Origin: Promethearchaeota archaeon
GTDB lineage: Archaea; Asgardarchaeota; Lokiarchaeia; Sigyniarchaeales; SOKP01
Direction of reading: 5' to 3'
Length of the DNA: 64,000 nucleotides
Assembly (NCBI GenBank): GCA_019057795.1
Contig: JAHLWS010000065.1
Location: 96,001 to 160,000 of the forward strand
Shown here in pieces: positions 16,701 through 33,778 of this stretch. The translations under genes and the position numbers were made by a program. A model generated the notes under the pieces. The model worked only from the letters and a program-made list of their open reading frames with translations, did no database searches and was not told where the DNA came from. Every line of letters starts with the position of its first letter. Positions within the stretch are counted from its first letter, which is position 1.

Positions 16701-16732
16701 TTACAACCGACTAAGAAATAATCAGAATTAGT

Positions 16733-17161: not shown

Positions 17162-17381
17162 TGGTTTCGCGACCTGTTAAATTATTTTCTCTAATTCTTT
17201 TTACATTTTCTTCTAACCCATTCCATAATTCAGGATCAAACTTGTTTTGCAATAATAGCCATGGATTGTCTTTTTTAGAAATTAACCTTTCGATCAATCT
17301 TGAGAATGATTCACCTTCTCGTTTTTCGTTTTTTAGTAAATTATATGCTTGCTCTGATAATGAAATTGTTTTTTGTGTCAT
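17154..17381 (-). CDS. vapB: VapB-type antitoxin (DUF217-like)
   Basis: KTISLSEQAYNLLKNEKREGESFSRLIERL; overlaps vapC start. Confidence 0.88.
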   Translation of the reverse strand: MTQKTISLSEQAYNLLKNEKREGESFSRLIERLISKKDNPWLLLQNKFDPELWNGLEENVKRIRENNLTGRETND

Positions 17382-17507
17382 AATTAAGTAACATAAATAG
17401 ACCTATTTAAATAGATCTACTTTTTTCTCTTTATCATAATCAATTGTCTTTATAAAAGCATCCGCTTTTTACTCAAATTGATTTTAACTTGTTTATCAAT
17501 AAATACC

Positions 17508-18035
17508 TTAAAATAGGTTTAGATTCGCGATTCCTAGATATTTCTCTACAACCTCTAAAACTTCTTCTTTTGACCCAATATATCCAAAGATTTGATGTCT
17601 AGCTTTTCCATGGGACGCATTATCGATAGATTCAAACTGACTTAGTTGTAGCTCGATTTCCCCATATTTTAAAGATAATTTATTTGGAGATTCCGAATTA
17701 TACGATTGAACCACGCCAATTTCGCTCTCTGGATGATCTCGAGAAACATCAAAACAGTCATCTTGAGTTTTAGGGATATCGTTGGAAAGCTTAACTAGAA
17801 AACCATATTCTTCTGAATCGGGAATTTTAAGTACATAACCGATTTTTGCGTGCCGAGTAAAATCAATATCTTCAGGTCGAACTGCTAACTTGTAAACATC
17901 GTCAACATCTAATTTGAAGGCAATGTAATTGTCTCCTACTTTCAATCGATCTTCGGGGATAATGCGAAAGTAGGACTTTGAGTAATTAACAATATTTTTC
18001 CTGCTGTTATCATCATCTGTCAAAAAGGAAAACAT
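17508..18035 (-). pseudogene. C-terminal part of an interrupted host gene (DUF6786-like)
   Basis: SYFRIIP..KIGY..VQSYN..YGEIE; directly abuts the left island repeat. Confidence 0.6.
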
Positions 18036-18037
18036 CT

Positions 18038-18052
18038 TATTATACGAAAGTA
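18038..18052 (+). repeat. Left boundary direct repeat TATTATACGAAAGTA
   Basis: Exact match to 33504-33518. Confidence 0.9.
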
Positions 18053-18096
18053 AACTTAGACAATTTTAATTGTATTTTTCTCAATCATTATTTTAA

Positions 18097-18530
18097 TTAA
18101 AGTATAAAAAGTCTGTTTTTCAGTTCGTAAGGATAGTTACAAAAGACAGCGATGCTGAGGAACTTAAGTATCTTATTGTTATAGATGAAGTTCATGCTAT
18201 TTTAGAAAAAATTATCACTACAAACAGCGATACAGCTGATTTCATCGTTAAAGAACAAATGGCGAAAAGATTCTCAGAATTATTAAAGGAGGATCGAAGT
18301 CGCGGTGTCGGGTTCGCTATTACGGATCAATCTCCCGCTCGTTTGTTCGATGATGTGGTTTCTCAGCCAAATATAAAAGTGATTTTCAGGGAAGTCTATA
18401 TCCAAATAACCTTCTTTTTTCACAAGATGCTGTTGAACGACAAATTTTAACACAACTAGCCAATAGACTAGCATTATTAATTAATGGAGCGAAATGGGAA
18501 AAATATTTAATCCGATCTTTAAATTTTTCT
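18097..18530 (+). pseudogene. C-terminal remnant of a second HerA/VirB4-like ATPase
   Basis: KYLIVIDEVHAIL (Walker B)...LLKEDRSRGVGFAITDQSPARL; no Walker A and no upstream start codon. Confidence 0.75.
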
Positions 18531-18552
18531 TTGTTATAAAACAATAGGAAAC

Positions 18553-19323
18553 TTAAATGAGTTTTTTATCTTTAAGATGATTTACTATTCGGTTTACAAC
18601 AGCTATGCATTCAGAAAGCAGATCTTGAACATCGTCATTTGTATAAGTTAATTCGGGATGTGCAGTAGGATTTCTGTAATTTACGCGAATTGCATCTAAT
18701 TGATCTAAAATTTCCCTTGGTGGAGGGACTGATATACTTTTTAAGTTTATTACAATATTTCCCCAGTTATCTTTACAGCCAGATGAACTATTTAATTTAT
18801 CAAAGAACCACCTCACAATTCCCTCCATACCACGTAGTATATGAAACGCTCCTGCTGTCGATCTTTCAAAGGCAATGCATTTTCCACCTTCGCTGAAATC
18901 GAATCGTGGTAAATCAGGGAGTTCATTAAAAATATTTTGTGCAAATAAATCTTTTATTTCATCTAATAACTTTTCAACTTTTATCCTTTTTTCTGTTATT
19001 ACATAAACTATCCTCCCTTGTAATTCAGCATGAATAACCGTATTTATTTTATCCATCAGAAGAAATATCTCGTTTACATCTTTCTTTTCTAATGTATACT
19101 TGCTATCTGTTTCATCAAGTCTTTCTTTATATTCCTTTAACTCACTGAACCATTCTACATTAGATGTTACCTCTAAATTTAATTCATCTATGTTTTCTAT
19201 GAAACGTTCAAAGCTATCTTTAACAAAGTTTTCTTTATGATAAGGGAAACCAGGTTCTACTAATCTTAGATAATTAATATCTCGTCCAAATGCTACATAA
19301 TCCTTAATGTTTTTCGTCTTCAT
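18553..19323 (-). CDS. HEPN-type (DUF4145-like) protein
   Basis: EGGKCIAFERSTAGAFHILRGME...YRNPTAHP (RxxxxH). Confidence 0.7.
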   Translation of the reverse strand: MKTKNIKDYVAFGRDINYLRLVEPGFPYHKENFVKDSFERFIENIDELNLEVTSNVEWFSELKEYKERLDETDSKYTLEKKDVNEIFLLMDKINTVIHAELQGRIVYVITEKRIKVEKLLDEIKDLFAQNIFNELPDLPRFDFSEGGKCIAFERSTAGAFHILRGMEGIVRWFFDKLNSSSGCKDNWGNIVINLKSISVPPPREILDQLDAIRVNYRNPTAHPELTYTNDDVQDLLSECIAVVNRIVNHLKDKKLI

Positions 19324-19556
19324 ATTTAATCTTTTATCTTTCCCGTTATATATCTTTTACTATTTTCTTAAAAGATCTTATTATAATTATTAAATCAAGT
19401 TATAATGAGATGTGACTTTCGTAAAAATGATTAAAAATAAGAAAGATTGTCAAAATTTTTGTTCTATCTCATTAAACAGATTATTTCTTTGGCAATATAT
19501 CAAATTTCTATTTTTACTTACTTTGCGATTATTAAATTTAAATTAGTGAAAAAATT

Positions 19557-20384
19557 CTAATCTTTTATATTTATACCTTGCTCTTTCAAGCAATCCCTGA
19601 AATATTTGAGAAATTCTTCTAAAACATGTTGGTTATTAATTAATTCACCATATGAAAAGGTTTCATTTGATTTCTCGTTGTGAATTGAGGTTTCGTTAAA
19701 TCTAATCTCGATAGACCATTTAGAATTATGTAATTTTATATTTCTTCCTGAACCGTGATGATCAATAATTAAATCTTCCTTTAACCTCTGTATCATTGCA
19801 AAATCAAGCTTGATAATTAAATTAATATTAATATCATCTGATTGTGGGTTTTTTAAAATATTGTATAATTCTTGGTATTTTCTTTGCTTATGATTAATCT
19901 GATAATCTTGGTGGGTTAAATTTTTATTCATTAACCTAATATACGGCAATGATTCTCCACTCCCCAAAATCTTTGTCTTTCTCATAGTATCTATTACGAA
20001 TTCGACGTATTTTTCTGCCTCTGGTTGCCTGAACGTTTGCTTTAACGATTCAAATCTATGCTGGTAAACACTTCTTTCAATATGGAAATCTTTAACGATC
20101 TCATCATAACTTTTTAAATTCCAAGGGAAATTTTGTTGCATATTTTTATATAGTATTGGAAAGTCGTAAGTTCGACCATCTCTTTTATTCTTAAATATTA
20201 AATCTATACGATTGTTTTCTGCCATCACAACCATACATATCTTAGACAAAACATTATCAGCAAGGTAATGACCTAACTCATAAATTATCGGAATTTCGTT
20301 TTTCGCAAGGTTTTTTGCTATACTTATCATTTTTTTAAGAGTCGTATTATAGGAACGAATATTAGCTTTATCCATGATTAACAA
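19557..20384 (-). CDS. Putative HEPN-like protein, paralog of 27450..28325
   Basis: YELGHYLADNVLSKIC...ERSVYQH (RxxxxH). Confidence 0.6.
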   Translation of the reverse strand: MLIMDKANIRSYNTTLKKMISIAKNLAKNEIPIIYELGHYLADNVLSKICMVVMAENNRIDLIFKNKRDGRTYDFPILYKNMQQNFPWNLKSYDEIVKDFHIERSVYQHRFESLKQTFRQPEAEKYVEFVIDTMRKTKILGSGESLPYIRLMNKNLTHQDYQINHKQRKYQELYNILKNPQSDDININLIIKLDFAMIQRLKEDLIIDHHGSGRNIKLHNSKWSIEIRFNETSIHNEKSNETFSYGELINNQHVLEEFLKYFRDCLKEQGINIKD

Positions 20385-20706
20385 AACTTAATTTTGATAT
20401 TTTAAAATTCTTATTAACTAGAACACATGTTATTTAGATTAATTAATTAAATTATCAAGCCTTTGATTTGTTTTATTCGAGGAGAGAGTAAGGATTTTCT
20501 CTATAATTGTTATTTAAAGAATCAATTCTTCTATTAACCTACACCTTTATTAAAAAGATTTAACGACGATTCATTTTAGTAATTCCATTATAATAGTGCC
20601 AAATAGCAAAATTTGATTGTTTTTTAAATTCAATTTGATAAACCAAGAAAGATTTTTTAATTTCTAAATACTTATCATTTTAAAATCTAAATATTAGCAT
20701 TTTATC

Positions 20707-21456
20707 ATGTTTGATATCACTTTAAAATCTGTTTATAATCTGGGTCCAGAAAATTCGTGGTTTATTATCGCTCCTATATCATTTGCCTTTAATAATGTGT
20801 ATTATTTAGAGCTCGAGATAATTCCACCATTGAGTGATAAAAGAAAACAAATTGAAGGAAAGTATAAAATAGCGTATATTTATGGTGATCAAAAAACTTT
20901 CATAGATGAAAGATTTCTAAATAGTATAAAAAAAAGAGTTGTAAAAAAAAAGGACCCCGAACAACCGCTCGATATTGATTATAAAGTATGCTTATTGTGT
21001 TTAGAAATAAGTGACCCGTTAGATGCCCAATACTTAATTCGAGCAAAAATGTCAGTAATTAATAAAGAACTAATTGATTCTCTTTTGACATCAAACGTAA
21101 AGAAAAAAGATTTAATTGCTCTAACTGAAAGATTTCTTAAACAAGATTATAAAACTGCTATAAAGGAAGCAGGTATATTTGGGGAATATATAGCAAAACA
21201 ATTTCTTAAAAAATTAAAAAAGAAGTATGTAAGTTATAGTTCCGCAGTTAATCATTTATCAAATCTAAAGAAAACTAACAGGATGAAAATCAATTACAAA
21301 TTAATTGGAAATTTCCTTCATCCAATTTATTTTATCAGAAACGAAGCAATGCATCCAAGTTCAGAAATTCCAATGGACGAGACTACTGCATCCTTAGTCT
21401 TAACAAATCTTTCCGGATTAATTACATATCTTTCTATCAATCAGATAAAATTTTAA
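20707..21456 (+). CDS. Unknown N-terminal domain plus C-terminal HEPN-like domain
   Basis: DYKTAIKEAGIFGE...IRNEAMHP. Confidence 0.6.
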   Translation: MFDITLKSVYNLGPENSWFIIAPISFAFNNVYYLELEIIPPLSDKRKQIEGKYKIAYIYGDQKTFIDERFLNSIKKRVVKKKDPEQPLDIDYKVCLLCLEISDPLDAQYLIRAKMSVINKELIDSLLTSNVKKKDLIALTERFLKQDYKTAIKEAGIFGEYIAKQFLKKLKKKYVSYSSAVNHLSNLKKTNRMKINYKLIGNFLHPIYFIRNEAMHPSSEIPMDETTASLVLTNLSGLITYLSINQIKF

Positions 21457-21511
21457 AGAAAAAGAAGCTATGGCTTAACTTTAAGTTCAATTAAAATTAA
21501 TATATGATTAA

Positions 21512-22231
21512 ATGTCGGATAATAACATAGAAAAAATTAGACAAATACTTCATTATAAGGAAAGGGATGATTTATCTGAATTACTTTCTCAATCCAAATC
21601 TAAAGTCCAAGCTTCGTCGTCTTATGGAAGTAAATTAAATTCCATTTTAAGCACATTTGAAATTTACTCATCAATTGAATATACTGAAAAGTTAAGGAAT
21701 TTAAATAAGGAGGAACACGACCTTATTTTTCTTGCAGTTAAAGAAGTTTACCCTATTAGAGATGCTTCTCCAGAAATCATGGATGTAAAATATTACATTA
21801 GTTCCAGTGAGGAAAATAATGATCTCGATTCAGCGGATTCATTATGGGCTAATATTCATCCAGATATTACAAAAGTCTCAAAACAATTATTTAGTGATAA
21901 ACATTATGCACAAGCTGTTTTTTCTGCATTTATAGAAGTGAATTTTCGCGTGAAAAACATAGTTAAGAATAAAATTGGAGAGGAATTAGACGGAAAAGAT
22001 TTAATGTTCAAAGCTTTTAATTTAGGAGATCCAATAATTCAATTAAGTAATTGTTCAACTAAAACAGAAAAAAATATTCAAGAGGGATACGGACATCTAT
22101 TTGCTGGGGCAATCCAAGGTATTCGAAATCCAAAAGCCCATGAAAACATAACAATTGATGAAAATAGGGCAATACACTTTATATATTTAGCAAGTCTTTT
22201 AATGTATAAAATAGATGAATCATATCAGTAA
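21512..22231 (+). CDS. TIGR02391/Ymh-family HEPN protein
   Basis: IHPDI..HYAQAVFSAFIEV..LDGKDLM..GAIQGIRNPKAH. Confidence 0.85.
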   Translation: MSDNNIEKIRQILHYKERDDLSELLSQSKSKVQASSSYGSKLNSILSTFEIYSSIEYTEKLRNLNKEEHDLIFLAVKEVYPIRDASPEIMDVKYYISSSEENNDLDSADSLWANIHPDITKVSKQLFSDKHYAQAVFSAFIEVNFRVKNIVKNKIGEELDGKDLMFKAFNLGDPIIQLSNCSTKTEKNIQEGYGHLFAGAIQGIRNPKAHENITIDENRAIHFIYLASLLMYKIDESYQ

Positions 22232-22233
22232 AA

Positions 22234-23358
22234 TTATCCATACCCGTTTCCCTCTTTATTGCCCTTTTTACTTTTCTGTTTTTTTCGCTTGTATTTTTCG
22301 TAGCGAATCCTGTTTATCTCGACTGTCTCCCTTAATTCTTCGATATTCTTAATTCTATAACTCATTACAAGCATTTTATACCGTACTTCGCGCCCCAGCT
22401 CTAATTCGTGGTCGATTAGCTGAACGTGGATGGTGTGCGGAAATTTCCCCCCCGTTCTTACGAGCCCTTTTTTTATTCTTCTGGTTGGTTTTTTGCAAAC
22501 TTTACATTTGTGGGGGATGTATTTCGTTACCGTGTGAATAGGTTCTAAATGCTTAGAATTTACGAACCCCGTTGTCTCGTAGGCGGGCTTTAGTTTTCCG
22601 TCGCCCTTTCTCCACAACGCACAATGGGTAAGGGTATAAAAAAGCGTATGGTAAGCGTCTTCCCTGCTTCCGAAATTAACGTACACCCAATCTTTAAATT
22701 TTTCCCTAAAATCATTCGCGTGTAGCACGTAACCGTACCCTATGTAGTGAAAGTGAGGGCTTAGAATCCGTTTTAAGTCTTGAGTTTCGCACGAACACCC
22801 GTAGTCTTTTTTTCCGCAAGTTCTACACTGCTTAACCCATAGATCGAGTATTAAAACGCCTCCAAATAGTCCAGATTCTTCTAAAATAGTATTTACTACG
22901 CGTTCCCTTCTAAATTTGAGAAATTTATCGTAATCCGTTAGTATTTCCTTCAGTAACTCTTTTGTCGGGCTTAAGGCGATGTGCTTTACCATACCAATTT
23001 TAACACCTTCTTTTAACGCTTTTTCTCTAAGTTCCTTCAATTTCCCGTTTAACTCTCTTGCTCTCGTTGACGAGGCTTGGATAAAACAAGATTCGCAATC
23101 CATTTTGTTGCAATGGTTGTAATGTAGCGTGAGGCTTTTGTATATGTGGTCTTTACACGCGCTAGCTCCTCGAAAAGTGTTGCAATTATCCCTGTACCTC
23201 CCGTCGTCGTGCGTTTTCTCGAAATTTCCGCTCCCCGCGATTATCCAGTTTGCTAATCTCTCGAATTCTAAAGCTTGGTTCTCTTTTATCTGGTCTATTA
23301 CGTTGTATTTGCTTTCAGTTAGGATTTCTACTTCTAAAGCCATTTTTTGTCGTTGCAA
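22234..23358 (-). CDS. HUH rolling-circle replication initiator/endonuclease (SNJ1 RepA/IS91-like, Zn-binding)
   Basis: N-terminal C..C..CxxxxCxxC cluster; motif 1 KHIALSP, motif 2 SPHFHYIG, motif 3 YHTLFYTLTH; extra CxxC pairs. Confidence 0.8.
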   Translation of the reverse strand: MQRQKMALEVEILTESKYNVIDQIKENQALEFERLANWIIAGSGNFEKTHDDGRYRDNCNTFRGASACKDHIYKSLTLHYNHCNKMDCESCFIQASSTRARELNGKLKELREKALKEGVKIGMVKHIALSPTKELLKEILTDYDKFLKFRRERVVNTILEESGLFGGVLILDLWVKQCRTCGKKDYGCSCETQDLKRILSPHFHYIGYGYVLHANDFREKFKDWVYVNFGSREDAYHTLFYTLTHCALWRKGDGKLKPAYETTGFVNSKHLEPIHTVTKYIPHKCKVCKKPTRRIKKGLVRTGGKFPHTIHVQLIDHELELGREVRYKMLVMSYRIKNIEELRETVEINRIRYEKYKRKKQKSKKGNKEGNGYG

Positions 23359-23707
23359 ATTTTTTTGATTTCGTTAGATTTTTGTACTTTAATTACTTCC
23401 AATCGACCTTTAAAAACTGCCCGACAAAATTTCGTGTCACGATATTCTAAATCCTTTATCTCCTAAGAATTCCCCCTTCAATCGTTTTAAATAATCCTTA
23501 GATTCTTAAAAATAATATTAAAGTAATAATAATTAAATTAAATTCAATTATTTATTTCTCAGAATAGATTTAATATCTCCTTAGTCTTATAATATTTTAA
23601 ATCTGTTTTTTTTTAGATTTACTTAATATCATTTTTAAATTTTATTCAAAAAATATTAAAGAAAGAAAGTGTTAATATAAAAATGCATTTCTGTAAATGA
23701 ACCTAAT

Positions 23708-24589
23708 ATGAAAGACTTTTGGAATAAAGAAACCGAAAAAAGATTTTTTAAACAGGCTTTAAAAAATTTCGCGACAGTAGAAAAGTTGTTCTATAAAACT
23801 AATAAGGGTGAATACTTTGCTTATTGGAAAAAAAAATATGAAGGTGAAAGATACACGCTTCAAAGCAGAAATTCATTAATCGGTAATTTTACCGAAAAAT
23901 ATTCGAAAGATTTATTACAGGAAACTGTCCAAGAGAGAAATTTATATGCCGTAAATAATGTTGTATGTAAAGAAATCGGTTTAACTAGAAGATCACCTGC
24001 TGATGTGGTAATTTCAAAAAGGAATCAGATTAATTTAAGACCAGAGGATATAGTTTTAATAGTAGAAGTTAAAATGTCTCTCGTTTGGAACTGGAGGTAT
24101 GAAATAAAAGGATCTGAAAATATTTTTAAATGTGTTGGAGATTACTTATCTCATGCAGGAACCCCCGGATTATTACGTTCAGATTCAATGTTAAAAGCAA
24201 TAGGAAAAAGCATTAATATAAGAGTTTCTGATTTTCAATCATCTAAAATTCCGATTATTATTTTAGGAAATACGCCAATTACAAATAATTATTATGATAA
24301 AGTTGACCATTTAAAAATTGCAGGTATTATTCAAGGTTTTTGCTCAATTAACCCATCCCCTATAAATGATACTACCCGAAATATAAAATCTACTCCTAAG
24401 CATGGATTTATTAGATTTGATAGATTTGACGAGTTTAAGAAGTATATTAATAAAATTATTTCATCTGATTATAACTTCTTTTCTAGCATGAAAAATCGGA
24501 AAGATTTGGGTATAATCATTGAAAAAGCAAATAAAAAACAAACTTATGAGGAAAAAGCTGAAGAATTTCTTAGATTAATACGAAATTAG
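23708..24589 (+). CDS. Putative type II restriction endonuclease (PD-(D/E)xK)
   Basis: PADVVI...IVEVK; directly upstream of a DNA methyltransferase. Confidence 0.7.
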   Translation: MKDFWNKETEKRFFKQALKNFATVEKLFYKTNKGEYFAYWKKKYEGERYTLQSRNSLIGNFTEKYSKDLLQETVQERNLYAVNNVVCKEIGLTRRSPADVVISKRNQINLRPEDIVLIVEVKMSLVWNWRYEIKGSENIFKCVGDYLSHAGTPGLLRSDSMLKAIGKSINIRVSDFQSSKIPIIILGNTPITNNYYDKVDHLKIAGIIQGFCSINPSPINDTTRNIKSTPKHGFIRFDRFDEFKKYINKIISSDYNFFSSMKNRKDLGIIIEKANKKQTYEEKAEEFLRLIRN

Positions 24590-24655
24590 AAAATTTATAA
24601 AATCTTAACCTCTTATTAGTGAATTTTTTATACATATTTTCTTATTATTATTATA

Positions 24656-25570
24656 ATGCCAGTTAATAATAGTAAGGGTACAAAAACAAGTTCATTTGGA
24701 GTCTCTAAACGAGAAGGTCATGACTCGTCCCATTTTTATAATTCTAAATTATATGAAAACATTACTAGACCTAAAATTGTTAAATATATTGATAATTCTA
24801 AATTAATTTCTCCTAAAGTATTGGATCATGTAATTTTAGGAGATAGTAGAGATATGCATTTAATCCCCGATAACTCTATTCATCTTATGGTTACATCCCC
24901 GCCGTATAATGTTAGAAAAGATTACGATGATGATTTATCATTATTAGAATATTTGCATCTACTTGAAGGGGTTTTTAAAGAAACTTGGCGTGTTTTAGTG
25001 CCTGGGGGAAGAGTTGCTATTAATGTTGCTAATGTAGGACGAAAGCCTTATATTCCTCTTCATGCATATTTTATCGAAATAATGTTTAATATAGGATTTC
25101 ATATGCGAGGAGAAATCATCTGGAATAAAGCTGCTTCTGCAGGCGTATCAACAGCGTGGGGATCATTCGCTTCTGCAAGTAATCCATGTCTAAGAGATGT
25201 GCATGAATATATTTTAATATTTTCAAAATTAACAAACAAACTTGAAAAGGAACAAAGGGAAAACTCAATAGAAAAAAAAGATTTTGTTGAGTGGTCAAAG
25301 TCAATTTGGTCGTTTTCAGCAGCTTCTGCTAGGAAAATTGGTCATCCTGCTCCTTTTCCAGAAGAATTACCTCGCCGATTAATAGAATTTTACACTTATA
25401 AGGGTGATGTTATATTAGATCCTTTTATTGGAAGTGGAACAACAGCTATTGCCTCATTAAAGTTAAATAGACATTATATTGGTTATGAAATATCGCCAGA
25501 ATTTGTTAATTTAGCAAAAAAAAGAATTTCAAATGTAAAAGACCAATTAAAAATTGATAATTTCATTTAA
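24656..25570 (+). CDS. Site-specific DNA methyltransferase, beta class (N4-C/N6-A)
   Basis: TSPPY precedes HPAPFP and DPFIGSGTT. Confidence 0.92.
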   Translation: MPVNNSKGTKTSSFGVSKREGHDSSHFYNSKLYENITRPKIVKYIDNSKLISPKVLDHVILGDSRDMHLIPDNSIHLMVTSPPYNVRKDYDDDLSLLEYLHLLEGVFKETWRVLVPGGRVAINVANVGRKPYIPLHAYFIEIMFNIGFHMRGEIIWNKAASAGVSTAWGSFASASNPCLRDVHEYILIFSKLTNKLEKEQRENSIEKKDFVEWSKSIWSFSAASARKIGHPAPFPEELPRRLIEFYTYKGDVILDPFIGSGTTAIASLKLNRHYIGYEISPEFVNLAKKRISNVKDQLKIDNFI

Positions 25571-25582
25571 TCTTTTAAAGTT

Positions 25583-27307
25583 TTATTCTTTATCCTTTTC
25601 GATCTCTTCCAAAAATCCTTCGGTTAGCAATAAGTTATCTATAAACTTATCAAATTCCTCTACTTTTTTGTCTTCCTCTTCCAATTTAACTGAACATAGC
25701 ACGCAATAATCGGCGTTCGTCGCGATTTCTTTCCCGCAAAACTTACAAAAACTTTTCGCTTCAAGTTTTTTATCTCTTGATAACGTGCCTTCCTTTTGCG
25801 TTTCCTTTTGTTTTTCCGTCCGTTCTAAAATCTCCTCGTTTTTTTCCACGATTTCCTCGTCCGAGAGCCAACTCCTCTTAACGTGTTCCGTTGCCATCGC
25901 GAACGGTTTCTCGATCGAGTTAACTCTAATTAAACATTGCCCCCTTTTTAACATCGATAAGTATTCCTTCTGCCATTCCTTTAAATTTAGTAATTCTTGC
26001 ATTAAGTCTTTTTGCATGTGTACTTGAAACGTAACGAGCACCCCGCAATTTGCTAATATTTCCCTGCTAATGTTAGGGCGGGTCGCGAGCGAAATCAAAC
26101 ATTCCCCAGTCCCCCTCAACAATAACGCGATATCCTCGATGTAAGAAGTGAGTTTTGTTCTACTACTAAGTTCTTGGGGGGCGAAATACTGCGCGTCCTC
26201 TATTATTGTTACGTGCTTAATTCCCTCGTAATTTTTGCTCCCCGTTTCTATGTTCTTGTCCCACAAATATTTTAGCACCATGTTTAAGAAAAACAACGCG
26301 TCTTCTTTTTCTCCCCCTTTGCGGATGATCGAGCTCAAGTCTAATAAAACCCTGTGGTTAAACAGCTCTTTCACGTTAAGACCGCTTTTCTTGTCGAATA
26401 TGTTTTTTAACGTGCTTACAGAATAGCGACGGATTCTATTTCTGATCGCTTGAACGCTTTTTTTCATGGTAAAATCTTCTTGTTTCGCGTAATATTTATC
26501 AAATTCGCTAAAAAACTTGTCCCAGCTCCTATTTTCTTCTTTTGGACAAATTTCGTATAGAATGTCGATAAATACTTTTTCCATTTGAGGCGAATAATCG
26601 ACGTTCTCTAACAAACCCCCGCTTTCGAAGATTTTAAACACCCTTTCTGCGTGAATGTACGGGTCTCCCCCTTCGGGATCGAAAATGTTAATCGAAAAGT
26701 TCTCGCCCGGCTTTAGTATCAGCAAATTGTCGATTTTCTTCTGCAAAAATTGGTATTCCCCCTTAAATTCCGTTAAAAGAAAGGGGATGTCGTATTTTTT
26801 AGTAAAATTCAACAGAAAATGTTGCAAAAAATTGCTTTTTCCCGTGCCCGTCGTTCCGCACACAAACATGTGTTGCGCTAAATCGTCAACGTTGAGGCTA
26901 AATTTATGCTTGACCTTGTGCTTGTCGATAACCCTTCCTATGTTTATGTTACCGATCTTAGACTCGGATTTTGACGGGTATTCCATTATCAGTTCGAATA
27001 TTTTCGGAGATTTAAAAGTGTATAGGAACAAAATGGAAGAAATAACTAAACTTAATTGAGAACCCCCTATAAAAACTATTTCTATAATAGATGACGACGG
27101 CTCTGCCGTAAATATTTCTAAATTAACTATCAAAAAAACGAATAAAATCACAAATATGACTATAATAGCGCAACGCATCGCTATTATCATAATGCTGTGC
27201 TTTATACCTCGTCTTTTACGCTTCTCTTTTGAGTTTGAGTAAAATAAAAACAAAATAAGAGCGATAGGAATAAGCGATAAAATGAAATACGGTAGTAGCG
27301 TGTCCAT
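25583..27307 (-). CDS. Membrane-anchored HerA/FtsK/VirB4-like ATPase with C-terminal zinc ribbon
   Basis: Three N-terminal TM helices, HMFVCGTTGTGKS (Walker A), TIIEDAQ (variant Walker B), CKFC...CVLC. Confidence 0.85.
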   Translation of the reverse strand: MDTLLPYFILSLIPIALILFLFYSNSKEKRKRRGIKHSIMIIAMRCAIIVIFVILFVFLIVNLEIFTAEPSSSIIEIVFIGGSQLSLVISSILFLYTFKSPKIFELIMEYPSKSESKIGNINIGRVIDKHKVKHKFSLNVDDLAQHMFVCGTTGTGKSNFLQHFLLNFTKKYDIPFLLTEFKGEYQFLQKKIDNLLILKPGENFSINIFDPEGGDPYIHAERVFKIFESGGLLENVDYSPQMEKVFIDILYEICPKEENRSWDKFFSEFDKYYAKQEDFTMKKSVQAIRNRIRRYSVSTLKNIFDKKSGLNVKELFNHRVLLDLSSIIRKGGEKEDALFFLNMVLKYLWDKNIETGSKNYEGIKHVTIIEDAQYFAPQELSSRTKLTSYIEDIALLLRGTGECLISLATRPNISREILANCGVLVTFQVHMQKDLMQELLNLKEWQKEYLSMLKRGQCLIRVNSIEKPFAMATEHVKRSWLSDEEIVEKNEEILERTEKQKETQKEGTLSRDKKLEAKSFCKFCGKEIATNADYCVLCSVKLEEEDKKVEEFDKFIDNLLLTEGFLEEIEKDKE

Positions 27308-27449
27308 TAAAACAATTATTTTGATAGAATGTTATAAACTCCTATTTTTTAAATACAATAGTAGAAAGATAGTATTTTTATAGACTAAATTTGATAAAAT
27401 TTTTTACTTGTATTATACCTTCATGATTGACATATAATAAAAAGAGAAT

Positions 27450-28325
27450 TTATTTAATTCTGGAACTAAGGCATTCTAGAATATTTGAAATTGTTTTGAA
27501 GTCTTGTATTGGATTATCATCAAATGCAAACTTCATTATCTTATCAATTCCAAAATTTTGAATATCTATAATAATTTCAAGATTTTGATTACAATTGACA
27601 TTAATTAAAATTCGTGTTACTTCCTTTTTGTTTTTGAAAAAAATAAAATCTGTAATTTTTATAATATTTCTTTCAAGATAGGAAACACCTAATGATTGTA
27701 ATAAAACTTTATGTGTTTTAATTAAATCTAATGCTGATATAATTGCCCCTGTGAATTTATTTCGAGGTCGAAAGGAAGAATTATAAATATGTGAACAAAT
27801 CTCTTGTAAAGCATTTATACATTGAATTTTTGTGTCTTTTTCTTTAACTAATTTTTGAGCTTCAAATTTATCTTTTCTTATAGGGTTTAAATAATTAGAA
27901 GGTGTGATATTCTCGTTTTTATTTATAAATTGAACTTCATTTAATATTTCTTCAGCAATTTCAATATATTGTTGCGCATATTCTTTATTAAAATGGTGGC
28001 TTATGGAAGATTGACCGTGCTGGTAAATATTTCTTTGGTTATGCAAAGCTTCTAATCTTTTAAAATCAGGGATATTAGGGGATTTAGATTTTAATACTTT
28101 ATTATACAGATCATAAAATGAATAAGTTATACTCCTACTACTTTTATTTTTTCTTGTAAAATTTAATCCATTTTCTATAGCGATAATGATACAAATTTTA
28201 GATATTAAATTATCAGTTAAGTAATGTCCAAGCTCATAAAATTGTGGATTATCGGAATTACATAATTCTTTAGCAAAACTAAACATTTTCTTAATTATAT
28301 TTCTCTCTATCTTTTTGTTCGGCAT
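27450..28325 (-). CDS. Putative HEPN-like protein, paralog of 19557..20384
   Basis: YELGHYLTDNLISKIC...QRNIYQH. Confidence 0.6.
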   Translation of the reverse strand: MPNKKIERNIIKKMFSFAKELCNSDNPQFYELGHYLTDNLISKICIIIAIENGLNFTRKNKSSRSITYSFYDLYNKVLKSKSPNIPDFKRLEALHNQRNIYQHGQSSISHHFNKEYAQQYIEIAEEILNEVQFINKNENITPSNYLNPIRKDKFEAQKLVKEKDTKIQCINALQEICSHIYNSSFRPRNKFTGAIISALDLIKTHKVLLQSLGVSYLERNIIKITDFIFFKNKKEVTRILINVNCNQNLEIIIDIQNFGIDKIMKFAFDDNPIQDFKTISNILECLSSRIK

Positions 28326-28409
28326 TTTAATTTTATTCAGACAATATAATTTTATAGGATTTTATTCAAATATTTTTATAATCCGATTATTGTTGAATTA
28401 TTATATTAT

Positions 28410-28745
28410 TTATTTAGTGACTTCAATTCCAAATTCTTCTAAATTAAACATTTTTTTATACCTTAAACCTCCCCCTTTAACAGAAATCGGTTCTACAATA
28501 TTAGATTTTGCCCAATCATTCCAATATTTAACTACTGTTGAATGACCTACAGAAACCTTCTCTGCTATTTTTCTGCTACTATTTTTACCATCACTATCAT
28601 GATATATTGATTGTTTTATATCATTATTTAATACACTAAGTAATACTTCTTTTGCTTTACTCCAAGCTTGAAATTTAGTCCATTTTACAAGTTCTTGTAA
28701 TAATTTTATAATTTGGTCATCTTGTCCTTTATTCATACTTTTCAC
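28410..28745 (-). CDS. HTH DNA-binding protein
   Basis: SSRKIAEKVSVGHSTVVKYW. Confidence 0.7.
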   Translation of the reverse strand: MKSMNKGQDDQIIKLLQELVKWTKFQAWSKAKEVLLSVLNNDIKQSIYHDSDGKNSSRKIAEKVSVGHSTVVKYWNDWAKSNIVEPISVKGGGLRYKKMFNLEEFGIEVTK

Positions 28746-29250
28746 CTTTAATTATTTTTGCAATAGCATCGTTTTTGTTTAATTTGTTTTGTAATACTTC
28801 TTTAATTAAGTTAAATAGAAATTTAGTAGTAAAAAACGTAAACCCATAATAATTTAGAAATTTTTTAGCGTTAGGTGTTAATGGATCATCTCTTTCATCA
28901 GGATTTTTATTCCTATAATGATTTATTACAAAAATTCCTTTTAATTCATTAGCTTTAGATGTTATCACCAGTTCTTGTTGAATCCAACTATCTAATTGGA
29001 TTATATCTTCTTTTTTGCCTTGTTTTGTTAGTCCTTTAACTTCTAAAATATATTTTATTCCTTCATGAATAAAAGAAATATCATGATTATTACTATCGTT
29101 TACAAGAACAACATCTTCTAAATTTAATAATTTCAAGCAATATGTAACTGCTTCTTCAAGTGGTTTACCTGTTCCATATAATAGACTTTCAATAATTTCA
29201 AAATGATTTATATTTTCTTTCAATTTTTTAATTTTTTTTATCGTTTCCAT
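28729..29250 (-). CDS. PD-(D/E)xK (Mrr-like) nuclease domain, possibly N-truncated
   Basis: GKPLEEAV..HDISF..ILEVKG..IIQLDSW..GIFVINH. Confidence 0.65.
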   Translation of the reverse strand: METIKKIKKLKENINHFEIIESLLYGTGKPLEEAVTYCLKLLNLEDVVLVNDSNNHDISFIHEGIKYILEVKGLTKQGKKEDIIQLDSWIQQELVITSKANELKGIFVINHYRNKNPDERDDPLTPNAKKFLNYYGFTFFTTKFLFNLIKEVLQNKLNKNDAIAKIIKGEKYE

Positions 29251-29372
29251 ATCTATTATTATAACTGTTATAGTTAATATAACACATAAGCGCAGTTAAA
29301 TAAACTAAGAGTCCTATAATTTTTCGTATAACAGAAAAAGATATATATACTATAATTGTTTCTATTACTATT

Positions 29373-29525
29373 ATGGAAAGTAAAAAAATTACGACTTTAA
29401 TAAAAAGTCCTACTAAGAAAGGAGATCAGTATTATTTCAGTATACCTATAGAATTTATTCGTTCAAAAAAAATTGACCCTGAGAAAAACTACGAAATTCA
29501 AATTTTCTCTTTATCTCAGGACTAA
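29373..29525 (+). CDS. Small AbrB-like DNA-binding protein (50 aa, not in ORF track)
   Basis: MESKKITTLIKSPTKKGDQYYFSIPIEFIRSKKIDPEKNYEIQI; BRE/TATA-like aaaagatatatata ~30 bp upstream. Confidence 0.6.
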   Translation: MESKKITTLIKSPTKKGDQYYFSIPIEFIRSKKIDPEKNYEIQIFSLSQD

Positions 29526-29640
29526 AGTTTTTAGTAATTTATTAAAGATATGTGTAGTAAAGAGTTAAAAATTTATAAACATAAATTTCAATATTTAGTA
29601 TAAGAATAAAAATCGAAAAGAATTTATTACTTTTAATAAA

Positions 29641-30792
29641 ATGAAACTGAATAAATTAAAATTGTATGGCAATATTGGTAAATTCTTCCCTTATTTAATG
29701 ATTCTTTATTTTACAGTTAGCTACTTATTCTTTTTTGAAAGCATAATCAATTTATTTCTTTTAATTTCATTCTTAGCTGTATTTATATTTTCTATTATTC
29801 AGTATGTAAAATTATATAAAAAAAACACTAAAGAAATTAAAACAGAACTTGAAAATGAAATTAAAAACATGAAAATAAATTCTACTTTATTCACACCTGA
29901 ATTTCTCATATCATATGCGAGAAAAATACCCTTTACATCTAAAAGGAGTATGGATAGGATTAAGATTCTTATCGCTCATTTATTTAAACAAAAAGAACTT
30001 GAAAGAGAAAAGTTGGTTAGTGCTTTCCAAGGTAAATTTTTTGAGAAAATAAAAGAATCTTTACAGATTTTACTCTATTTTATAAATATAGAAGAATATG
30101 AATTAAATAAATATTTATCTATTAAGAGAAAAAAGCACTTCTTATTCTGGTCAATTTCTCAAGTCATAGTATTAAGTTTAATATTAATTTTTGGATTTTT
30201 AATTGCATTTATTGAACTTCCTCAATTTTTTATTTTCTTTCTCTTTCTAATAATTCTCCTTCTTTTTGTGATTTTTAGAGATATTAAATTGGTTGTTAAT
30301 AAGAAGTTCCAAAATGGTCTTAATAGATACCACAAAAATAAGAAAATATTTAGTGAATATCAAATATCACTTAATTTGCTATGCAATAATCATTATTTTC
30401 TTTCTTTAGAACAATATAAGGATGTCAAATCATTATTGAATTTAACAAATTTAAAAATTAATTACTATAAGGAGATAATAAAACCATATTATTTTTATAT
30501 GTTGAAATATGAAATTATTGGTTTTTTTGGAATTCTCTGTGTAATCATTAGTGCTATTTTTCAAGAGATATCCCATCAAATTTCAATAACTTTATTTAAT
30601 TTTAATATTATAACTATAATCCTCTTTTTAGTCTTTATTTGCGGTTTTATCATAATCCCAATTATACTATTTAGAAAACCTCTCAAAATTAATATTTTAA
30701 TTGATGAAAGAGGTAAGAAGCTTAAAGAAAACTTAGAACTTCTTAAAGTATGCCAATATGCATTTATAATAATCAATAAAAATCAAAATTAG
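29641..30792 (+). CDS. Multi-pass membrane protein, unknown function
   Basis: Three pairs of TM helices; extremely AT-rich. Confidence 0.6.
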   Translation: MKLNKLKLYGNIGKFFPYLMILYFTVSYLFFFESIINLFLLISFLAVFIFSIIQYVKLYKKNTKEIKTELENEIKNMKINSTLFTPEFLISYARKIPFTSKRSMDRIKILIAHLFKQKELEREKLVSAFQGKFFEKIKESLQILLYFINIEEYELNKYLSIKRKKHFLFWSISQVIVLSLILIFGFLIAFIELPQFFIFFLFLIILLLFVIFRDIKLVVNKKFQNGLNRYHKNKKIFSEYQISLNLLCNNHYFLSLEQYKDVKSLLNLTNLKINYYKEIIKPYYFYMLKYEIIGFFGILCVIISAIFQEISHQISITLFNFNIITIILFLVFICGFIIIPIILFRKPLKINILIDERGKKLKENLELLKVCQYAFIIINKNQN

Positions 30793-30963
30793 TAGAATAG
30801 TTTTTCTAAATTGCTTAGGTTTCATAAGATTAGTTCTTTTTAAATAAAGTAACAATGAAAAATATTTATAAATTTAATTCGGTTCTAATTACGTTAAATT
30901 ATTCAATCTTAAAAATCATGATTCTATACCATCTGATGTTTATAAAAATTAAAACAGGATACT

Positions 30964-31196
30964 GCTTCGCAACCATCCTTAGATGATCGGGGTTGATGGG
31001 GGGTTTATCCCCCCCTAAATTACGATACTTCCGCGTTCAAAAAAAATATGGCTTAAAAGCTTCGAGACCAAAAACATCCCGTTAAAAAGTAGATAGTAGA
31101 TACATGTAAGTTAAAAGATTCGGAGCGACCCGTTAGCCCTTGATGGTTGCGAAGCGAAGCGAAGCAAGGTCGCGACAGCGGAGCGTAAGCGACGCT
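30964..31196. other. GC-rich structured non-coding region, candidate rolling-circle origin
   Basis: 14-bp inverted repeat 30964-30977/31142-31155, G6-tttat-C7 hairpin 30998-31015, (GCGAA)3, palindrome gtcgcgac. Confidence 0.55.
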
Positions 31197-31478
31197 AAAT
31201 ACTATTTTTTTCGTGCGGAAAAAGGAAAGAAAAAAAAATACGCCCTTTATATTCTGAATTTCTAAAGGAACAACCGTTGATGAAAGCTGTTAAACAAAAA
31301 TGTAATTTGTATCGTTATTTTTAGTACTTTGTTTAACGCGTTTTAAATAAAGATCAATATTATTAAAACCATAATAAATTCTCTTATAAATATTATAGTC
31401 TATACATTATTTGTAAACATTGATGTTTAACACCAATATTATAATAAATATTTACTATAAGAGGAAAAAAAATTTATA

Positions 31479-31799
31479 ATGGATCAAAAGTACTATATAG
31501 ATTTAAAAGATAAGAATGGAAATTCATACATGTTAAGTATTTTAATCGAACGGGATTTAGGAAAAAACGGAATTTTTATTATGGAACACGCTAACGGTAC
31601 TCAAAAATCGTTTAAAAAAATTACAAGGGCGTTGAAATATCTAAAAAAAAAGAAATTTTCTCCCGATGAAATTAAAAGAGTAATAGATTTAAACCAGAAA
31701 ATCATGAGACTTAGAGATTCCGAAAAACGCAGGTTTATCTCACCTCCTTTTGGTTTTGAATATTCTAAAGAAATTAATAAAAAGTATTCAAAGAAATAA
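31479..31799 (+). CDS. Hypothetical basic protein
   Basis: 106-aa ORF with ATG and gagg upstream. Confidence 0.55.
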   Translation: MDQKYYIDLKDKNGNSYMLSILIERDLGKNGIFIMEHANGTQKSFKKITRALKYLKKKKFSPDEIKRVIDLNQKIMRLRDSEKRRFISPPFGFEYSKEINKKYSKK

Positions 31800-31830
31800 A
31801 ACAATAAAAATTGGAAATATATGAATTATA

Positions 31831-32157
31831 ATGTCGCAAAAAAAAGACAAAATTATAGGGATAAGATTAACAAATACGGAAAAAGAAGAAATTGATAACT
31901 ACACCAAAAATAGAGGTTCTAACCTTACAGAATTTATTAGACAAGCGATAGCTTTTTATCTAAACAATTTAGAAGAAAATCCTGAATCAATTAATATAGA
32001 AAATGTAGTTGAATATTCTAAAAAAATAAGGACATCGATAAAAAATGTTAACATTAACTTTAACCAATTAAAATTAGCTCTAAATGAGCTTTCAAATAAC
32101 TTCAATCAATTGGATAAAGAATTGGTAATTTATTTAAGAAAATGGTATAAAAAGTAG
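31831..32157 (+). CDS. Ribbon-helix-helix (CopG/MobC-like) protein with coiled coil
   Basis: IIGIRLTNTEKEEI...NLTEFIRQAI. Confidence 0.75.
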   Translation: MSQKKDKIIGIRLTNTEKEEIDNYTKNRGSNLTEFIRQAIAFYLNNLEENPESINIENVVEYSKKIRTSIKNVNINFNQLKLALNELSNNFNQLDKELVIYLRKWYKK

Positions 32158-32259
32158 TCTAGCTAATAAAGTCGAATTTTAAGAGTAGCGACGGTTGTGA
32201 AATGATGTTTATGAATGAAACAACCGAGCAACCTCTGAAAATGAGCGGGAAGGTTCGCG

Positions 32260-32282
32260 AAGGAAACCGAAGGGGTTTCCTT
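32260..32282. other. 9-bp stem-loop between convergent genes (terminator or ssDNA signal)
   Basis: aaggaaacc-gaagg-ggtttcctt. Confidence 0.5.
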
Positions 32283-32300
32283 GCAAGAGTAAACGGGTAA

Positions 32301-32879
32301 CTATTTTACATCTCTTTTCTTTAAAGGAAATCCGCTCTCAATGTCTCGTAGAAACGAGTTATATCTTGACCGTCCCCAAAGATATCTATCCTTACTTCTT
32401 AAATCTTTGAATTCTTTCTCTAATTTTAACGCCTTAAATGCTTCTATAAATTCTAAATATCTTTCTGCTTTTCTTTCTGATTTTTCATAATCTAAATTTT
32501 CAAATCTTTCTAATTCTTCGTGTTCTACAACTCTAAAATCGTATACCGTGAATCTTTTAGGATATAGCACTGTTAATATGGCAGAAGCAGTAGCTATCCG
32601 AAATTCCCAATCAAATAGAATTTTAATTCTTTCTAAATCGGATTTAGCCCTATGTATTTCGCGAGTTAATATTTTAACGTTCTCGTCAAATGTTTTAGAT
32701 TCTTCTTTTTTTATTATTTTTCGAGCGTTTAAAAATTTTACTCTTTCAGCCTTCCAAATTAAAATACAATAAAATTGAACTCCACTGATATAACCGTTTA
32801 ATTGAAAAAATTCCGTAACATCCTTATATAAATAACTTTCCAAATCGTAAAATTTCTCGTAATCTATATCCTCGCTCAT
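32301..32879 (-). CDS. HhH-GPD-like (DNA glycosylase-related) protein
   Basis: ILIWK..FRIATASAILTVLYPKRFTVYDFRV..LRSKDRYLW. Confidence 0.55.
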   Translation of the reverse strand: MSEDIDYEKFYDLESYLYKDVTEFFQLNGYISGVQFYCILIWKAERVKFLNARKIIKKEESKTFDENVKILTREIHRAKSDLERIKILFDWEFRIATASAILTVLYPKRFTVYDFRVVEHEELERFENLDYEKSERKAERYLEFIEAFKALKLEKEFKDLRSKDRYLWGRSRYNSFLRDIESGFPLKKRDVK

Positions 32880-32980
32880 TTTGGTTTTTACCTCTTTTTG
32901 TATTTTTATCCCAAATCATTTCTCGTTTATAAATATAAGATCTATTAATTTAAAAAAGAGTTTTAAAAAAAATAAACGAA

Positions 32981-33322
32981 TTACTTCTCTCTCTTTAATT
33001 TGTCCTCAGAAAAATCTCTAAAATCCCGAAATTGATAACCGCTTTCGACGGATATTTTACGCTCGTCTTCCAAACTCTTAGCTCCTCCTTCCCTCTTGAG
33101 CAAGCCCTTTACAAAAGCTTCCACGGCAACTTTATACTCGCCAACTCTGCTCTTAGGTACTTGAAAAAACAAAAAAGCCGAACCCTCCCCCAAAGTTAAC
33201 TCTATTGCGAACTTACCCTCAACGAATTCCCGAACAGCCTCTCGATACTCCAATATCTTGCTCGTAGGAACCCTCACGCTCACCCAACCCGATGCTTCCC
33301 CAAACTTACGCTTTCTACCCAA
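32981..33322 (-). CDS. Small putative DNA-binding protein with internal duplication
   Basis: GRKRKFGE..VSVRVPTSKILEYREAV repeated as FFQVPKSRVGEYKVAV. Confidence 0.5.
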   Translation of the reverse strand: MGRKRKFGEASGWVSVRVPTSKILEYREAVREFVEGKFAIELTLGEGSAFLFFQVPKSRVGEYKVAVEAFVKGLLKREGGAKSLEDERKISVESGYQFRDFRDFSEDKLKREK

Positions 33323-33420
33323 GAATACAAACCAAAACTAGTTTAAACTTTCTTAAATTATAAGTTAGAGGCAACGATTTTAAACCGCTAGAATTTTAAA
33401 AGAAAAACTTTCGAAAATTT

Positions 33421-33480
33421 CGCGACTCGAATTTACGCGTTCCGAGACTCGAAATAACCCCCCTACTTTTCCGCGACTCG
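33421..33480 (+). repeat. Three sub-terminal CG(C/A)GACTCG repeats
   Basis: cgcgactcg 33421, cgagactcg 33443, cgcgactcg 33472. Confidence 0.75.
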
Positions 33481-33503
33481 TAAAAACCATATGTATCTTG
33501 ATA

Positions 33504-33518
33504 TATTATACGAAAGTA
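33504..33518 (+). repeat. Right boundary direct repeat TATTATACGAAAGTA
   Basis: Exact match to 18038-18052. Confidence 0.9.
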
Positions 33519-33778
33519 CTAAAAAAACTAAAAAATTCTCTTTCCGGACTAATCCAATATCTATCTCCGCCAATATCCCTTCTTCTTGTTTTAAATACTT
33601 CTTTTATATCTGGATTAATCCACAGCAAACTATAACAATCGTTCTTTGGATACAGCCCTAAAAGGCGCCCTCCATACTCAGAAACTACCGCAGAACTTTC
33701 GTTGTTAAAATTTAATTCGATAGGATTACCAATATCTTCCTTGAAAGATAAAAGAGTATTTTTGGTAAAGTAGTTCAT
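33506..33778 (-). pseudogene. N-terminal part of the interrupted host gene (DUF6786-like)
   Basis: YGGRLLGL..LLWIN..GGDRYWISPEREFF, then stops inside the boundary repeat. Confidence 0.65.

Follow-up and report, generated by a model that had tools for sequence, protein, structure and literature searches.

The window analysed here is a stretch of 64,000 nucleotides on one contig (C65) of a 4.95 Mb assembly from a Promethearchaeota archaeon, labelled G000 in the loci cited below, and it carries an island with an HUH endonuclease (Rep), a membrane-anchored ATPase and a set of cargo genes. The original prediction, which regarded the island as a mobile, integrase-less and undescribed HUH-associated element, is supported by the results: the cargo is variable, the element is apparently undescribed, and the direct repeat at the island ends can now be tied to the Rep family. 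This repeat, exact over 15 bp as had been claimed, occupies positions 18038-18052 and 33504-33518 and contains the 11-bp box described below. Some 15-mer repeat is present in 92% of shuffles of the 22 kb of local DNA and a single one is unremarkable alone, which is the point in favour of a chance repeat in a patchwork defence island; repeat copies at both boundaries were found in 0 of 200 shuffles. Chance and misassembly are already refuted, since the same ends occur on 52 distinct contigs and in nine complete elements, and since both island junctions are bridged at flat depth by contigs of two runs (possibly from the source sample). The boundary misassembly that had been raised as an objection was thus looked at and the assembly is sound; joints in runs X3/X4 belong to other strains and serve as leads only.

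The interrupted host gene encodes a DUF6786 protein (PF20583), which is intact in relatives at 355-388 aa and uninterrupted in 14 of the 24 congeners sampled. Alignment to intact alleles shows that host homology ends at 17975 and resumes at 33530, and the insert accordingly spans 17976-33529. The flanking pieces, which had been described as lying immediately outside the repeats, are indeed two parts of this one gene, the 3′ part at 17508-17975 (minus strand, from about residue 200, with a cryptic box-like sequence, 17963-17973, at its junction end) and the 5′ part at 33530-33778 (minus strand, about 84 codons), but they do not both abut the repeats, and joining them at one repeat copy does not restore the reading frame. 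The host gene has lost 351 bp and the lost piece is found nowhere else in the assembly. The left repeat is preceded by a 'fuzzy end' (17976-18037, minus strand), a 62-bp remnant of a YkgJ-family (CxxCxxCC) host gene that was carried from an earlier insertion site; it is 83% identical over 63 nt to the intact YkgJ gene of genome G020 (E 3e-13), and the same remnant stands at loci C49 and L238. On the other side an A-rich 12-bp linker (33518-33529, plus strand) is a trimmed form of the approximately 40-nt A/C-rich tail of the YkgJ locus. The island is real and the 15-bp repeat is not a host attachment site: the earlier notion of an att core or target duplication does not hold because empty sites lack the repeat and host DNA has been deleted. 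A tRNA was likewise rejected as the target, there being none in the window.

The Rep protein, the terminal box and the element family

The putative transposase Rep (22234-23358, minus strand, 374 aa) is the predicted HUH endonuclease with zinc clusters; it displays H202-F-H204, a single conserved tyrosine (Y241), three Cys clusters and a conserved G-x-G-Y-G tail. A set of 100 homologs, out of 709 found, has H202 and Y241 invariant and H204 conserved in more than 90%; the nearest Rep relatives reside in Promethearchaeota/Lokiarchaeota genomes. The structural model (predicted local distance difference test, pLDDT, 82) has an HUH-like fold, a point on which the prediction could have failed, with weak PDB matches to SIRV1 ORF119, parvovirus NS1 and pMV158 RepB (Z 4.5-5.3) and with Rep_1 and IS91-type clusters as its nearest Atlas neighbours (template modelling score, TM, 0.47-0.51). 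The IS91 zinc domain PF14319 was detected in 4 of 100 homologs (best E 2.5e-4), the window Rep itself having no Pfam match. Foldseek gave no PDB match for Rep under E 0.001, the PDB sequence-profile search returned zinc-finger noise only, and three Rep homologs tried had no match in plasmid and phage collections. The Rep-Arvir family (PMC13107129) was considered and rejected as an identity, being Rep_trans-like and distinct from the window Rep. The conserved motifs, together with the weak structural matches, place Rep in the HUH superfamily.

The Asgard Rep proteins form one clade (support 100/97), and loci bearing the box are spread over it. The box, in some cases with one base changed, follows the rep stop codon by 5-32 nt on the same strand at 9 of 16 rep loci from more than one genus, and at four further loci, the window included, it is the first match within 1-4.2 kb; the chance per locus is 3.5e-5 for the former class and 4e-3 for the latter. 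The ancestral layout has the box right behind rep, with rep facing the left end. The conserved C-terminal tail of Rep encodes the complement of part of the box, and at one locus the two fold together (z -1.8); given this complementarity, the tail may be constrained at the DNA level. Rep itself was found in 12 of the 135 host-family genomes.

In the window, the left repeat (18038-18052, plus strand) holds the 11-bp box TATACGAAAGT at 18041-18051, which marks the rep-downstream end of the element. The right end (33493-33518, plus strand) is more elaborate, with a nick-like motif GTATCTTG/ATA at 33493-33503 followed by the box at 33507-33517. Its motif matches in sequence the origin core TATCTTG/ATA of the plasmids pGT5 and pTN1 (PMC9569500), with binding-type repeats adjacent. 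These are three 8-bp iterons (at 33422, 33444 and 33473, within 33422-33480, plus strand); a second iteron class occurs in other members. A right end is generally built from iterons, which fall into two classes, followed by the motif GTATC(C/T)TG, a 6-base spacer and the box, while the left end is the box alone. A variant of the motif reads TATCCTG, as nick motifs of the RP4/T-DNA type do.

Further copies of the right end were found on contig C49 of this genome and in congeners. A relaxed 25-bp pattern, for which the reversed control gave 0, detected it in 11 of the 135 host-family genomes (two genera, at most three loci per genome) and on 46 metagenome contigs; eight metagenome matches (L221, L222, L226, L227, L231, L232, L240 and L251) were discarded as chance. 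Altogether 52 distinct right ends were retained, some of them from sister strains of one insertion, and 42 of the 52 share an identical 25-mer. The bare 11-mer occurs genome-wide at background frequency, so only paired or rep-adjacent copies were counted. With a complete element defined by a second box in the same orientation at a host boundary, nine were found, of 2-28 kb: the window island (15.5 kb), C49 of the same genome (4.5 kb), G020 (28.5 kb), G015 (10.9 kb), G008 (8.2 kb), L229 (2.0 kb), L238 (4.6 kb), L242 (2.9 kb) and L301 (9.3 kb). Four of the nine encode Rep, five do not, and two carry the ATPase. Small non-coding blocks and small genes are common to the elements, whereas the cargo differs. 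The anatomy of the elements is one of element-owned 11-bp direct repeats, an origin-like right end and a rep gene facing the left end; the family comprises copies with and without rep, at several target loci, and no recognised recombinase. At L208 (768-895) and L209 (39638-39746), both of G198, ends of the right and left types are 92-103 bp apart, and these are candidates for tandem elements or an integrated two-box junction.

Target loci, junctions and the mode of movement

At least six target loci were recognised: YkgJ, Sua5, the M24-peptidase/CDC48 region, DUF6786, a site beside rpS2 and a hydrolase-like gene. The box is absent from those empty target alleles that were compared with occupied sites. 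Host DNA is lost on insertion: YkgJ lacks about 6 bp and Sua5 5-14 bp, the deletion at DUF6786 measures 351 or about 530 bp, and at CDC48 three genes have gone with 4-5 kb. The C49 element (G000 C49, 68-72.6 kb) has replaced an M24 peptidase, a hydrolase and an aminotransferase gene, and the M24 and aminotransferase orthologs of that locus were not found elsewhere in the assembly. Junction positions recur. All 11 right ends at the YkgJ locus join after one identical heptamer, and the DUF6786 right junction falls on the same base in three host lineages, with two iteron classes and with native flanks (94-96% to own relatives); a distant lineage has the DUF6786 left junction at residue 200 too, and partial boxes stand at both DUF6786 junction positions. 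The host open reading frame (ORF) that borders the element on its right points towards the element 34 times out of 42, the loci not being independent.

The junctions carry donor flank, trim the tail and delete host DNA. At the Sua5 locus the gene is made whole again by a foreign gene start that lies beyond the left box, and donor YkgJ flank stands outside the left box at two other loci as well. The right-hand tails have a median of 19 nt and consist of 62% A and 20% C, a composition that prompted us to consider de novo tailing by a nucleotidyl transferase activity like that of Rep75. Between the YkgJ-locus tails and those at other loci the mean common run is 11.4 nt, against 7.9 +/- 0.3 for shuffled tails, which suggests that the latter loci have largely trimmed versions of the YkgJ-locus tail; de novo tailing was set aside because the tails are largely inherited.

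We are somewhat inclined to regard the island as an autonomous-looking copy of a group of HUH-mobilised cargo transposons in Lokiarchaeia (Promethearchaeia), with terminal direct repeats and with fuzzy, deleting junctions. Rep would bind the box and nick single-stranded DNA at or beside both ends, and the strand would be released by rolling-circle displacement that overshoots the boxes, by at most about 40 nt on the right; on the left the overshoot would reach about 90 nt or take in the complete start of a gene. Rep would then engage a target, often one with a partial box, and join one end, while host repair would close the other at microhomology or at homology to the carried flank, with the loss of 5 bp to 5 kb of host DNA. 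Copies without rep would be moved in trans, the membrane ATPase may be an optional export or uptake helper, and the cargo (restriction-modification (R-M), HEPN-like, OLD, McrBC and KAP NTPase genes) would turn over between the ends.

Several observations weigh against this model. After simple rolling-circle cut-and-join only one end would keep the box and no host DNA would be missing, and the intact box plus flank at both ends implies a chemistry that plain rolling circle does not explain. No circle, empty-site read or excision was seen among contigs, the only material examined; the circular junction at the 15-bp repeat that had been anticipated, or any box-to-box junction, did not appear in the contigs of the two runs, and none of 51 contigs tested was circular. 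The fold matches of Rep are weak (best Z 5.3; TM 0.47-0.51), and 3 of the 16 rep loci have no box within 6 kb. A Rep sub-clade (G252, G257, G218) resides in larger elements with Cdc6, SSB and RadA, which indicates that the Rep family also serves other elements. The few recurring target loci would fit homology-driven spread as well as transposition. Finally, the host genome has four tyrosine recombinases, and the box resembles one arm of lox/Xer (XerC) sites.

The loci of the Rep sub-clade, L213/L279 (G252 C7, 343-357 kb), L214/L280 (G257 C82) and L215, lack both the tail and the box, and contain small membrane genes and an uncharacterised gene of 700 aa along with the ATPase, RadA, Cdc6 and SSB/RPA.

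The recombinases and the arm-like box are also what speaks for an integrative rolling-circle plasmid or satellite, which a host XerA-like recombinase would excise at the boxes, Rep serving only to replicate it from the origin at the right end, and which would re-enter by recombinase or repair in the manner of IMEX/pdif. The nick motif and iterons adjoin the right box, the position expected of a double-strand origin once the element has closed box to box, and lone intergenic boxes followed by an A/C-rich tail at L283 (about 8525) and L284 (about 2876), without counterpart in the orthologous G000 region, are possible scars of such excision. This explanation is nevertheless unlikely, as the empty targets hold neither box nor dif-like site, the junctions lie outside the boxes and the box tracks the rep stop codon. 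The second arm that a recombinase site would need matches at 2 of 11 positions with a 6-bp spacer and at 6 of 11 with a 7-bp spacer, and the genome contains no symmetric site with fewer than three mismatches. Moreover, the commonest form of the right end is present in only 8 of 400 genomes of the phylum and can therefore not be the chromosomal dif.

The deletions of 5 bp to 5 kb, the few recurring loci, the mosaic interior and the foreign Sua5 allele that restores its gene at one locus could also be produced if chromosomal fragments, acquired by transformation or by Ced-like or conjugative transfer through the ATPase, replaced resident DNA, with homology fixing one side and microhomology the opposite one. 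In that case an oriT-like site and a relic would form the ends, and Rep would be a relaxase rather than a transposase; an ATPase with weak CedD/CedB/TraD similarity near half of the rep loci agrees with this. We regard such replacement as improbable, since it leaves unexplained why an intact box is always found within 3-40 nt of a junction at either end, why junction positions are identical in diverged hosts with native flanks, and how new loci are entered together with an unrelated YkgJ flank.

One may also speculate that the box is a cos-like cohesive end of a virus satellite, cut by a helper virus, and that linear DNA, bearing the box at each end, was captured at chromosomal breaks. If a circle with a single box were cut with an 11-nt stagger, direct repeats derived from the element and ragged junctions would result, and the distant relatives of Rep are partly viral. 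Against it, searches of IMG/VR viral contigs brought up neither Rep nor the right end, PHROGs gave no match for Rep or the homologs tried, the sizes of 2-28 kb show no capsid constraint and donor flank beyond the boxes is unexpected; a satellite origin is thus very improbable.

ATPase, cargo and conserved non-coding blocks

The ATPase (25583-27307, minus strand) is membrane-anchored and of HerA/FtsK type, as had been read from the sequence, with three N-terminal hydrophobic segments and Walker A/B motifs, and has paralogs on contigs C53 (86%) and C5. Its similarity to HerA, CedD/CedB and coupling proteins (TraD) is weak, all matches being far below cut-off. The proposed two-gene chassis of Rep and ATPase is not obligatory, for among the nine complete elements the ATPase is present in two and Rep in four; the ATPase is dispensable, and a copy also stands alone on C53. 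Pairing of the two genes was borne out in part: an ATPase copy lies within 10 kb at about half of some 20 rep loci, which is above chance, but the ATPase family is nearly ubiquitous and near single-copy (106 of 135 host-family genomes) while Rep is confined to 12. Considered by itself, the family in these 106 genomes may be a core DNA-transfer gene that has so far gone unrecognised. A remnant at 18097-18450 (plus strand) covers the Walker B region of a soluble HerA/VirB4-like ATPase; it has no Pfam match alone, is common to L238 and forms a BLAST cluster with a 684-aa ATPase of C53. This related region (G000 C53, 116-122 kb) lies at the end of a contig and combines a soluble ATPase of the HerA/VirB4 kind with membrane proteins.

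The cargo begins on the left with a weak HEPN-like gene (18553-19323, minus strand, E 0.012) that has homologs in several sister elements, and a gene (19557-20384, minus strand) of a family recurrent in elements, with a paralog at 27450-28325. They are followed by a gene with a weak type I R-M HsdR N-terminal match (20707-21456, plus strand, NCBIfam E 4e-5) and a Ymh-domain/HEPN-like gene (21512-22231, plus strand, PF09509 E 2e-29; PADLOC PD-Lambda-3_B, Aga_HEPN). A type II R-M pair (23708-25570, plus strand) consists of a restriction endonuclease-like gene (23708-24589; Atlas 0.97), for which the single-sequence fold was unusable (pLDDT 31), and an N4/N6 methyltransferase (24656-25570; PADLOC E 1e-121). 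One R-M pair and weak HEPN-like genes do not amount to the defence arsenal that had been ascribed to this copy. Genes of 291 aa, 111 aa and 173 aa (27450-29250, minus strand) come next, the second (28410-28745) with a weak helix-turn-helix (HTH). A conserved block with a 50-aa gene (block 29232-29526, gene 29373-29525, plus strand) is shared with at least five sister elements, and a multi-pass membrane protein (29641-30792, plus strand) was not found in the sister elements examined. Towards the right end lie a 106-aa gene and a ribbon-helix-helix (RHH)/NikA-like gene (31479-32157, plus strand, the RHH gene at 31831-32157), and finally a 192-aa cargo gene and a 113-aa gene (32301-33322, minus strand), the latter being the first gene inside many right ends. 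Of the RHH, AbrB and HTH regulators that had been listed, the RHH gene and the weak HTH were recovered, whereas the gene at 29373-29525, labelled AbrB, has no Pfam match.

Hairpin-rich, origin-like DNA had also been postulated, and held for one region only: 32160-32300 folds better than shuffles (z -4.4), and the structured non-coding block there (32165-32295) is found in more than ten sister elements, whereas 30960-31240 and the right end do not fold above shuffles, though both are conserved in sister elements. The non-coding block at 30950-31215, with 90-97% identity in six other elements, is by its conservation a candidate lagging-strand origin or regulatory site.

The original prediction recognised no recombinase, DDE transposase or capsid gene, and none was found among the island ORFs with Pfam, PADLOC and NCBIfam. 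For a capsid or morphogenesis block there was no Pfam/NCBIfam match in the island, the PHROG search having covered Rep only, and gene content varies between members. Integrase and transposase families were equally absent from the 25/34 Pfam families listed for 49 cargo ORFs, and contig annotations of six further rep loci contain no integrase or transposase except for one unrelated DDE insertion sequence and one reverse transcriptase. Cargo across the elements includes R-M systems, McrBC, OLD, HNH, KAP NTPase, HEPN-like and leucine-rich repeat (LRR) proteins and a Ras-family GTPase. This small GTPase, a eukaryotic signature protein, is encoded by the G015 element (L044, 7994-8527), and the LRR protein by another. 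At L022 (10300-17700, G198 C66) a unit of about 250 bp with a 56-63-aa ORF is present in five or six copies between cargo genes downstream of rep.

Other repeats and rearrangements were noted besides. A GC-rich repeat of about 40-120 bp occurs in G000 on C78 (58-90 kb) and C5 (7.7 and 9.6 kb), and at L017 (9016-9147); on C78 at least 13 copies stand between unrelated cargo-like genes, resembling a cassette array or a miniature inverted-repeat transposable element, and several of the genes between them are homologous to window cargo. An integron-like cassette repeat of this kind is absent from the window and was rejected as one of its features. Just left of the island, 16002-17507 represents a second rearrangement, in which a major facilitator superfamily gene, cut at 16704, keeps just the 3′ half, an inserted VapB/PIN toxin-antitoxin pair occupies 16733-17381 and about 6 kb of G020 genes are absent. 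Right of it, a membrane protein (37881-38792) has a long Asp-Val/Ile dipeptide repeat whose length varies among relatives.

Relation to described HUH-mobilised elements

The literature yielded no description of these ends or of an Asgard HUH transposon, subscription papers being only partly covered, and the element family is apparently undescribed. Integrase-made islands (integrative and conjugative elements (ICE), integrative and mobilizable elements and CIE) have their own recombinase and a repeat that is present once in the empty site, neither of which applies to the Asgard elements. The ICE Yucahu-i (PMC11529989) shares R-M cargo and an 11-bp terminal repeat, but has a tyrosine integrase and a true att site, and aloposons (PMC8813620) differ by giant genes and tRNA targets. 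Wyrdviruses WyrdV4/5 (bioRxiv 10.1101/2021.07.29.453957) share the HUH Rep and an ATPase and differ by their capsid genes and by an ATPase without transmembrane segments, and the description of the NMV2S satellite (10.64898/2026.08.12.739948) lacks the Asgard element ends. Elements of the IMEX/pdif kind likewise enter without an integrase of their own, whereas the Asgard elements have direct rather than inverted sites, many loci and no dif target; no insertion was found at dif or two-armed inverted sites, the dif site of this genus not being identified. Integration junctions of adeno-associated virus (AAV) are imprecise. A likeness to AAV Rep and TrwC is seen in integrase-less entry and in HUH-dependent integration at origin-like targets (PMC5714925).

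The archaeal plasmids pGT5 and pTN1 with Rep75/Rep74 (PMC9569500, PMC2926602) and integrated elements of the SNJ1 RepA type (PMC6563490) also encode archaeal HUH Reps that are distantly IS91-related, and pGT5/pTN1 share the origin core TATCTTG/ATA with the Asgard right end (PMC9569500). In the Asgard elements, unlike these, the motif is at the element end, the copies are chromosomal and there is neither integrase nor att site.

Only four groups of HUH-mobilised transposons have been described, IS200/605, IS91/ISCR, Helitrons and Replitrons (PMC10288648). IS91/ISCR enzymes are defined as Y2/Y1 transposases with PF04986 and a PF14319 zinc domain (PMC13181058, PMC6218425). The Asgard elements resemble this group in their HUH enzyme, which is weakly similar to Zn_Tnp_IS91 (4 of 100 homologs; TM 0.47-0.51), in an origin or conserved end directly downstream of the transposase gene (PMC13181058, PMC6218425), the lack of target duplication, co-mobilised flank and CTTG in the far end. 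In contrast to the fixed tetranucleotide target, clean insertion and missing terminal direct repeat of IS91/ISCR, they have variable bases before the left box, deletions and 11-bp repeats; they also differ in having one conserved tyrosine, iterons and the longest conservation at the upstream end, and cargo also between rep and its end.

The eukaryotic Replitrons (PMC10288648) have a single-tyrosine HUH enzyme without helicase, short element-owned terminal direct repeats, fixed-orientation insertion, non-autonomous copies and fuzzy donor flank at the transposase-downstream end, all of which are found here. They differ, by description, in an HUQ motif II and a CRESS-type Rep with an oligomerisation domain, where the Asgard Rep has HFH, three Cys clusters and a Rep_1/IS91-type affinity, and in repeats of about 6 bp with target duplications, as opposed to 11-bp repeats with target deletions. 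Unlike Replitrons, the Asgard elements are archaeal, carry kilobases of cargo and bring flank at both ends. Replitron-1 shows a similar unexplained departure from plain rolling-circle chemistry (PMC10288648). The resemblance is offered as an analogy, and homology is not claimed.

Here, then, is a family that works like IS91 and Replitrons, yet lacks a defining feature of each and is a member of neither. It provides a concrete route for the exchange of defence genes in Lokiarchaeia without integrases, one that island finders based on integrases and att sites would miss or mis-delimit, and its 25-bp end is usable as a search tag. Terminal direct repeats have been thought unique to Replitrons, whose mechanism is open (PMC10288648), and in a prokaryotic system with ends of the Replitron kind, an enzyme of 374 aa and an end defined to 25 bp, that mechanism becomes accessible to oligonucleotide tests. 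We tentatively entertain the further possibility that these cargo-carrying elements with terminal direct repeats constitute a separate group of HUH transposons that evolved independently and would be the first in Asgard archaea. A single kind of box, bound by Rep, would delimit the element on either side and recur in partial form at some targets; host DNA would be replaced on integration, and the interrupted gene could be restored from the flank brought along. If this is true, they represent the prokaryotic equivalent of Replitrons, and do so in the lineage nearest to eukaryotes.

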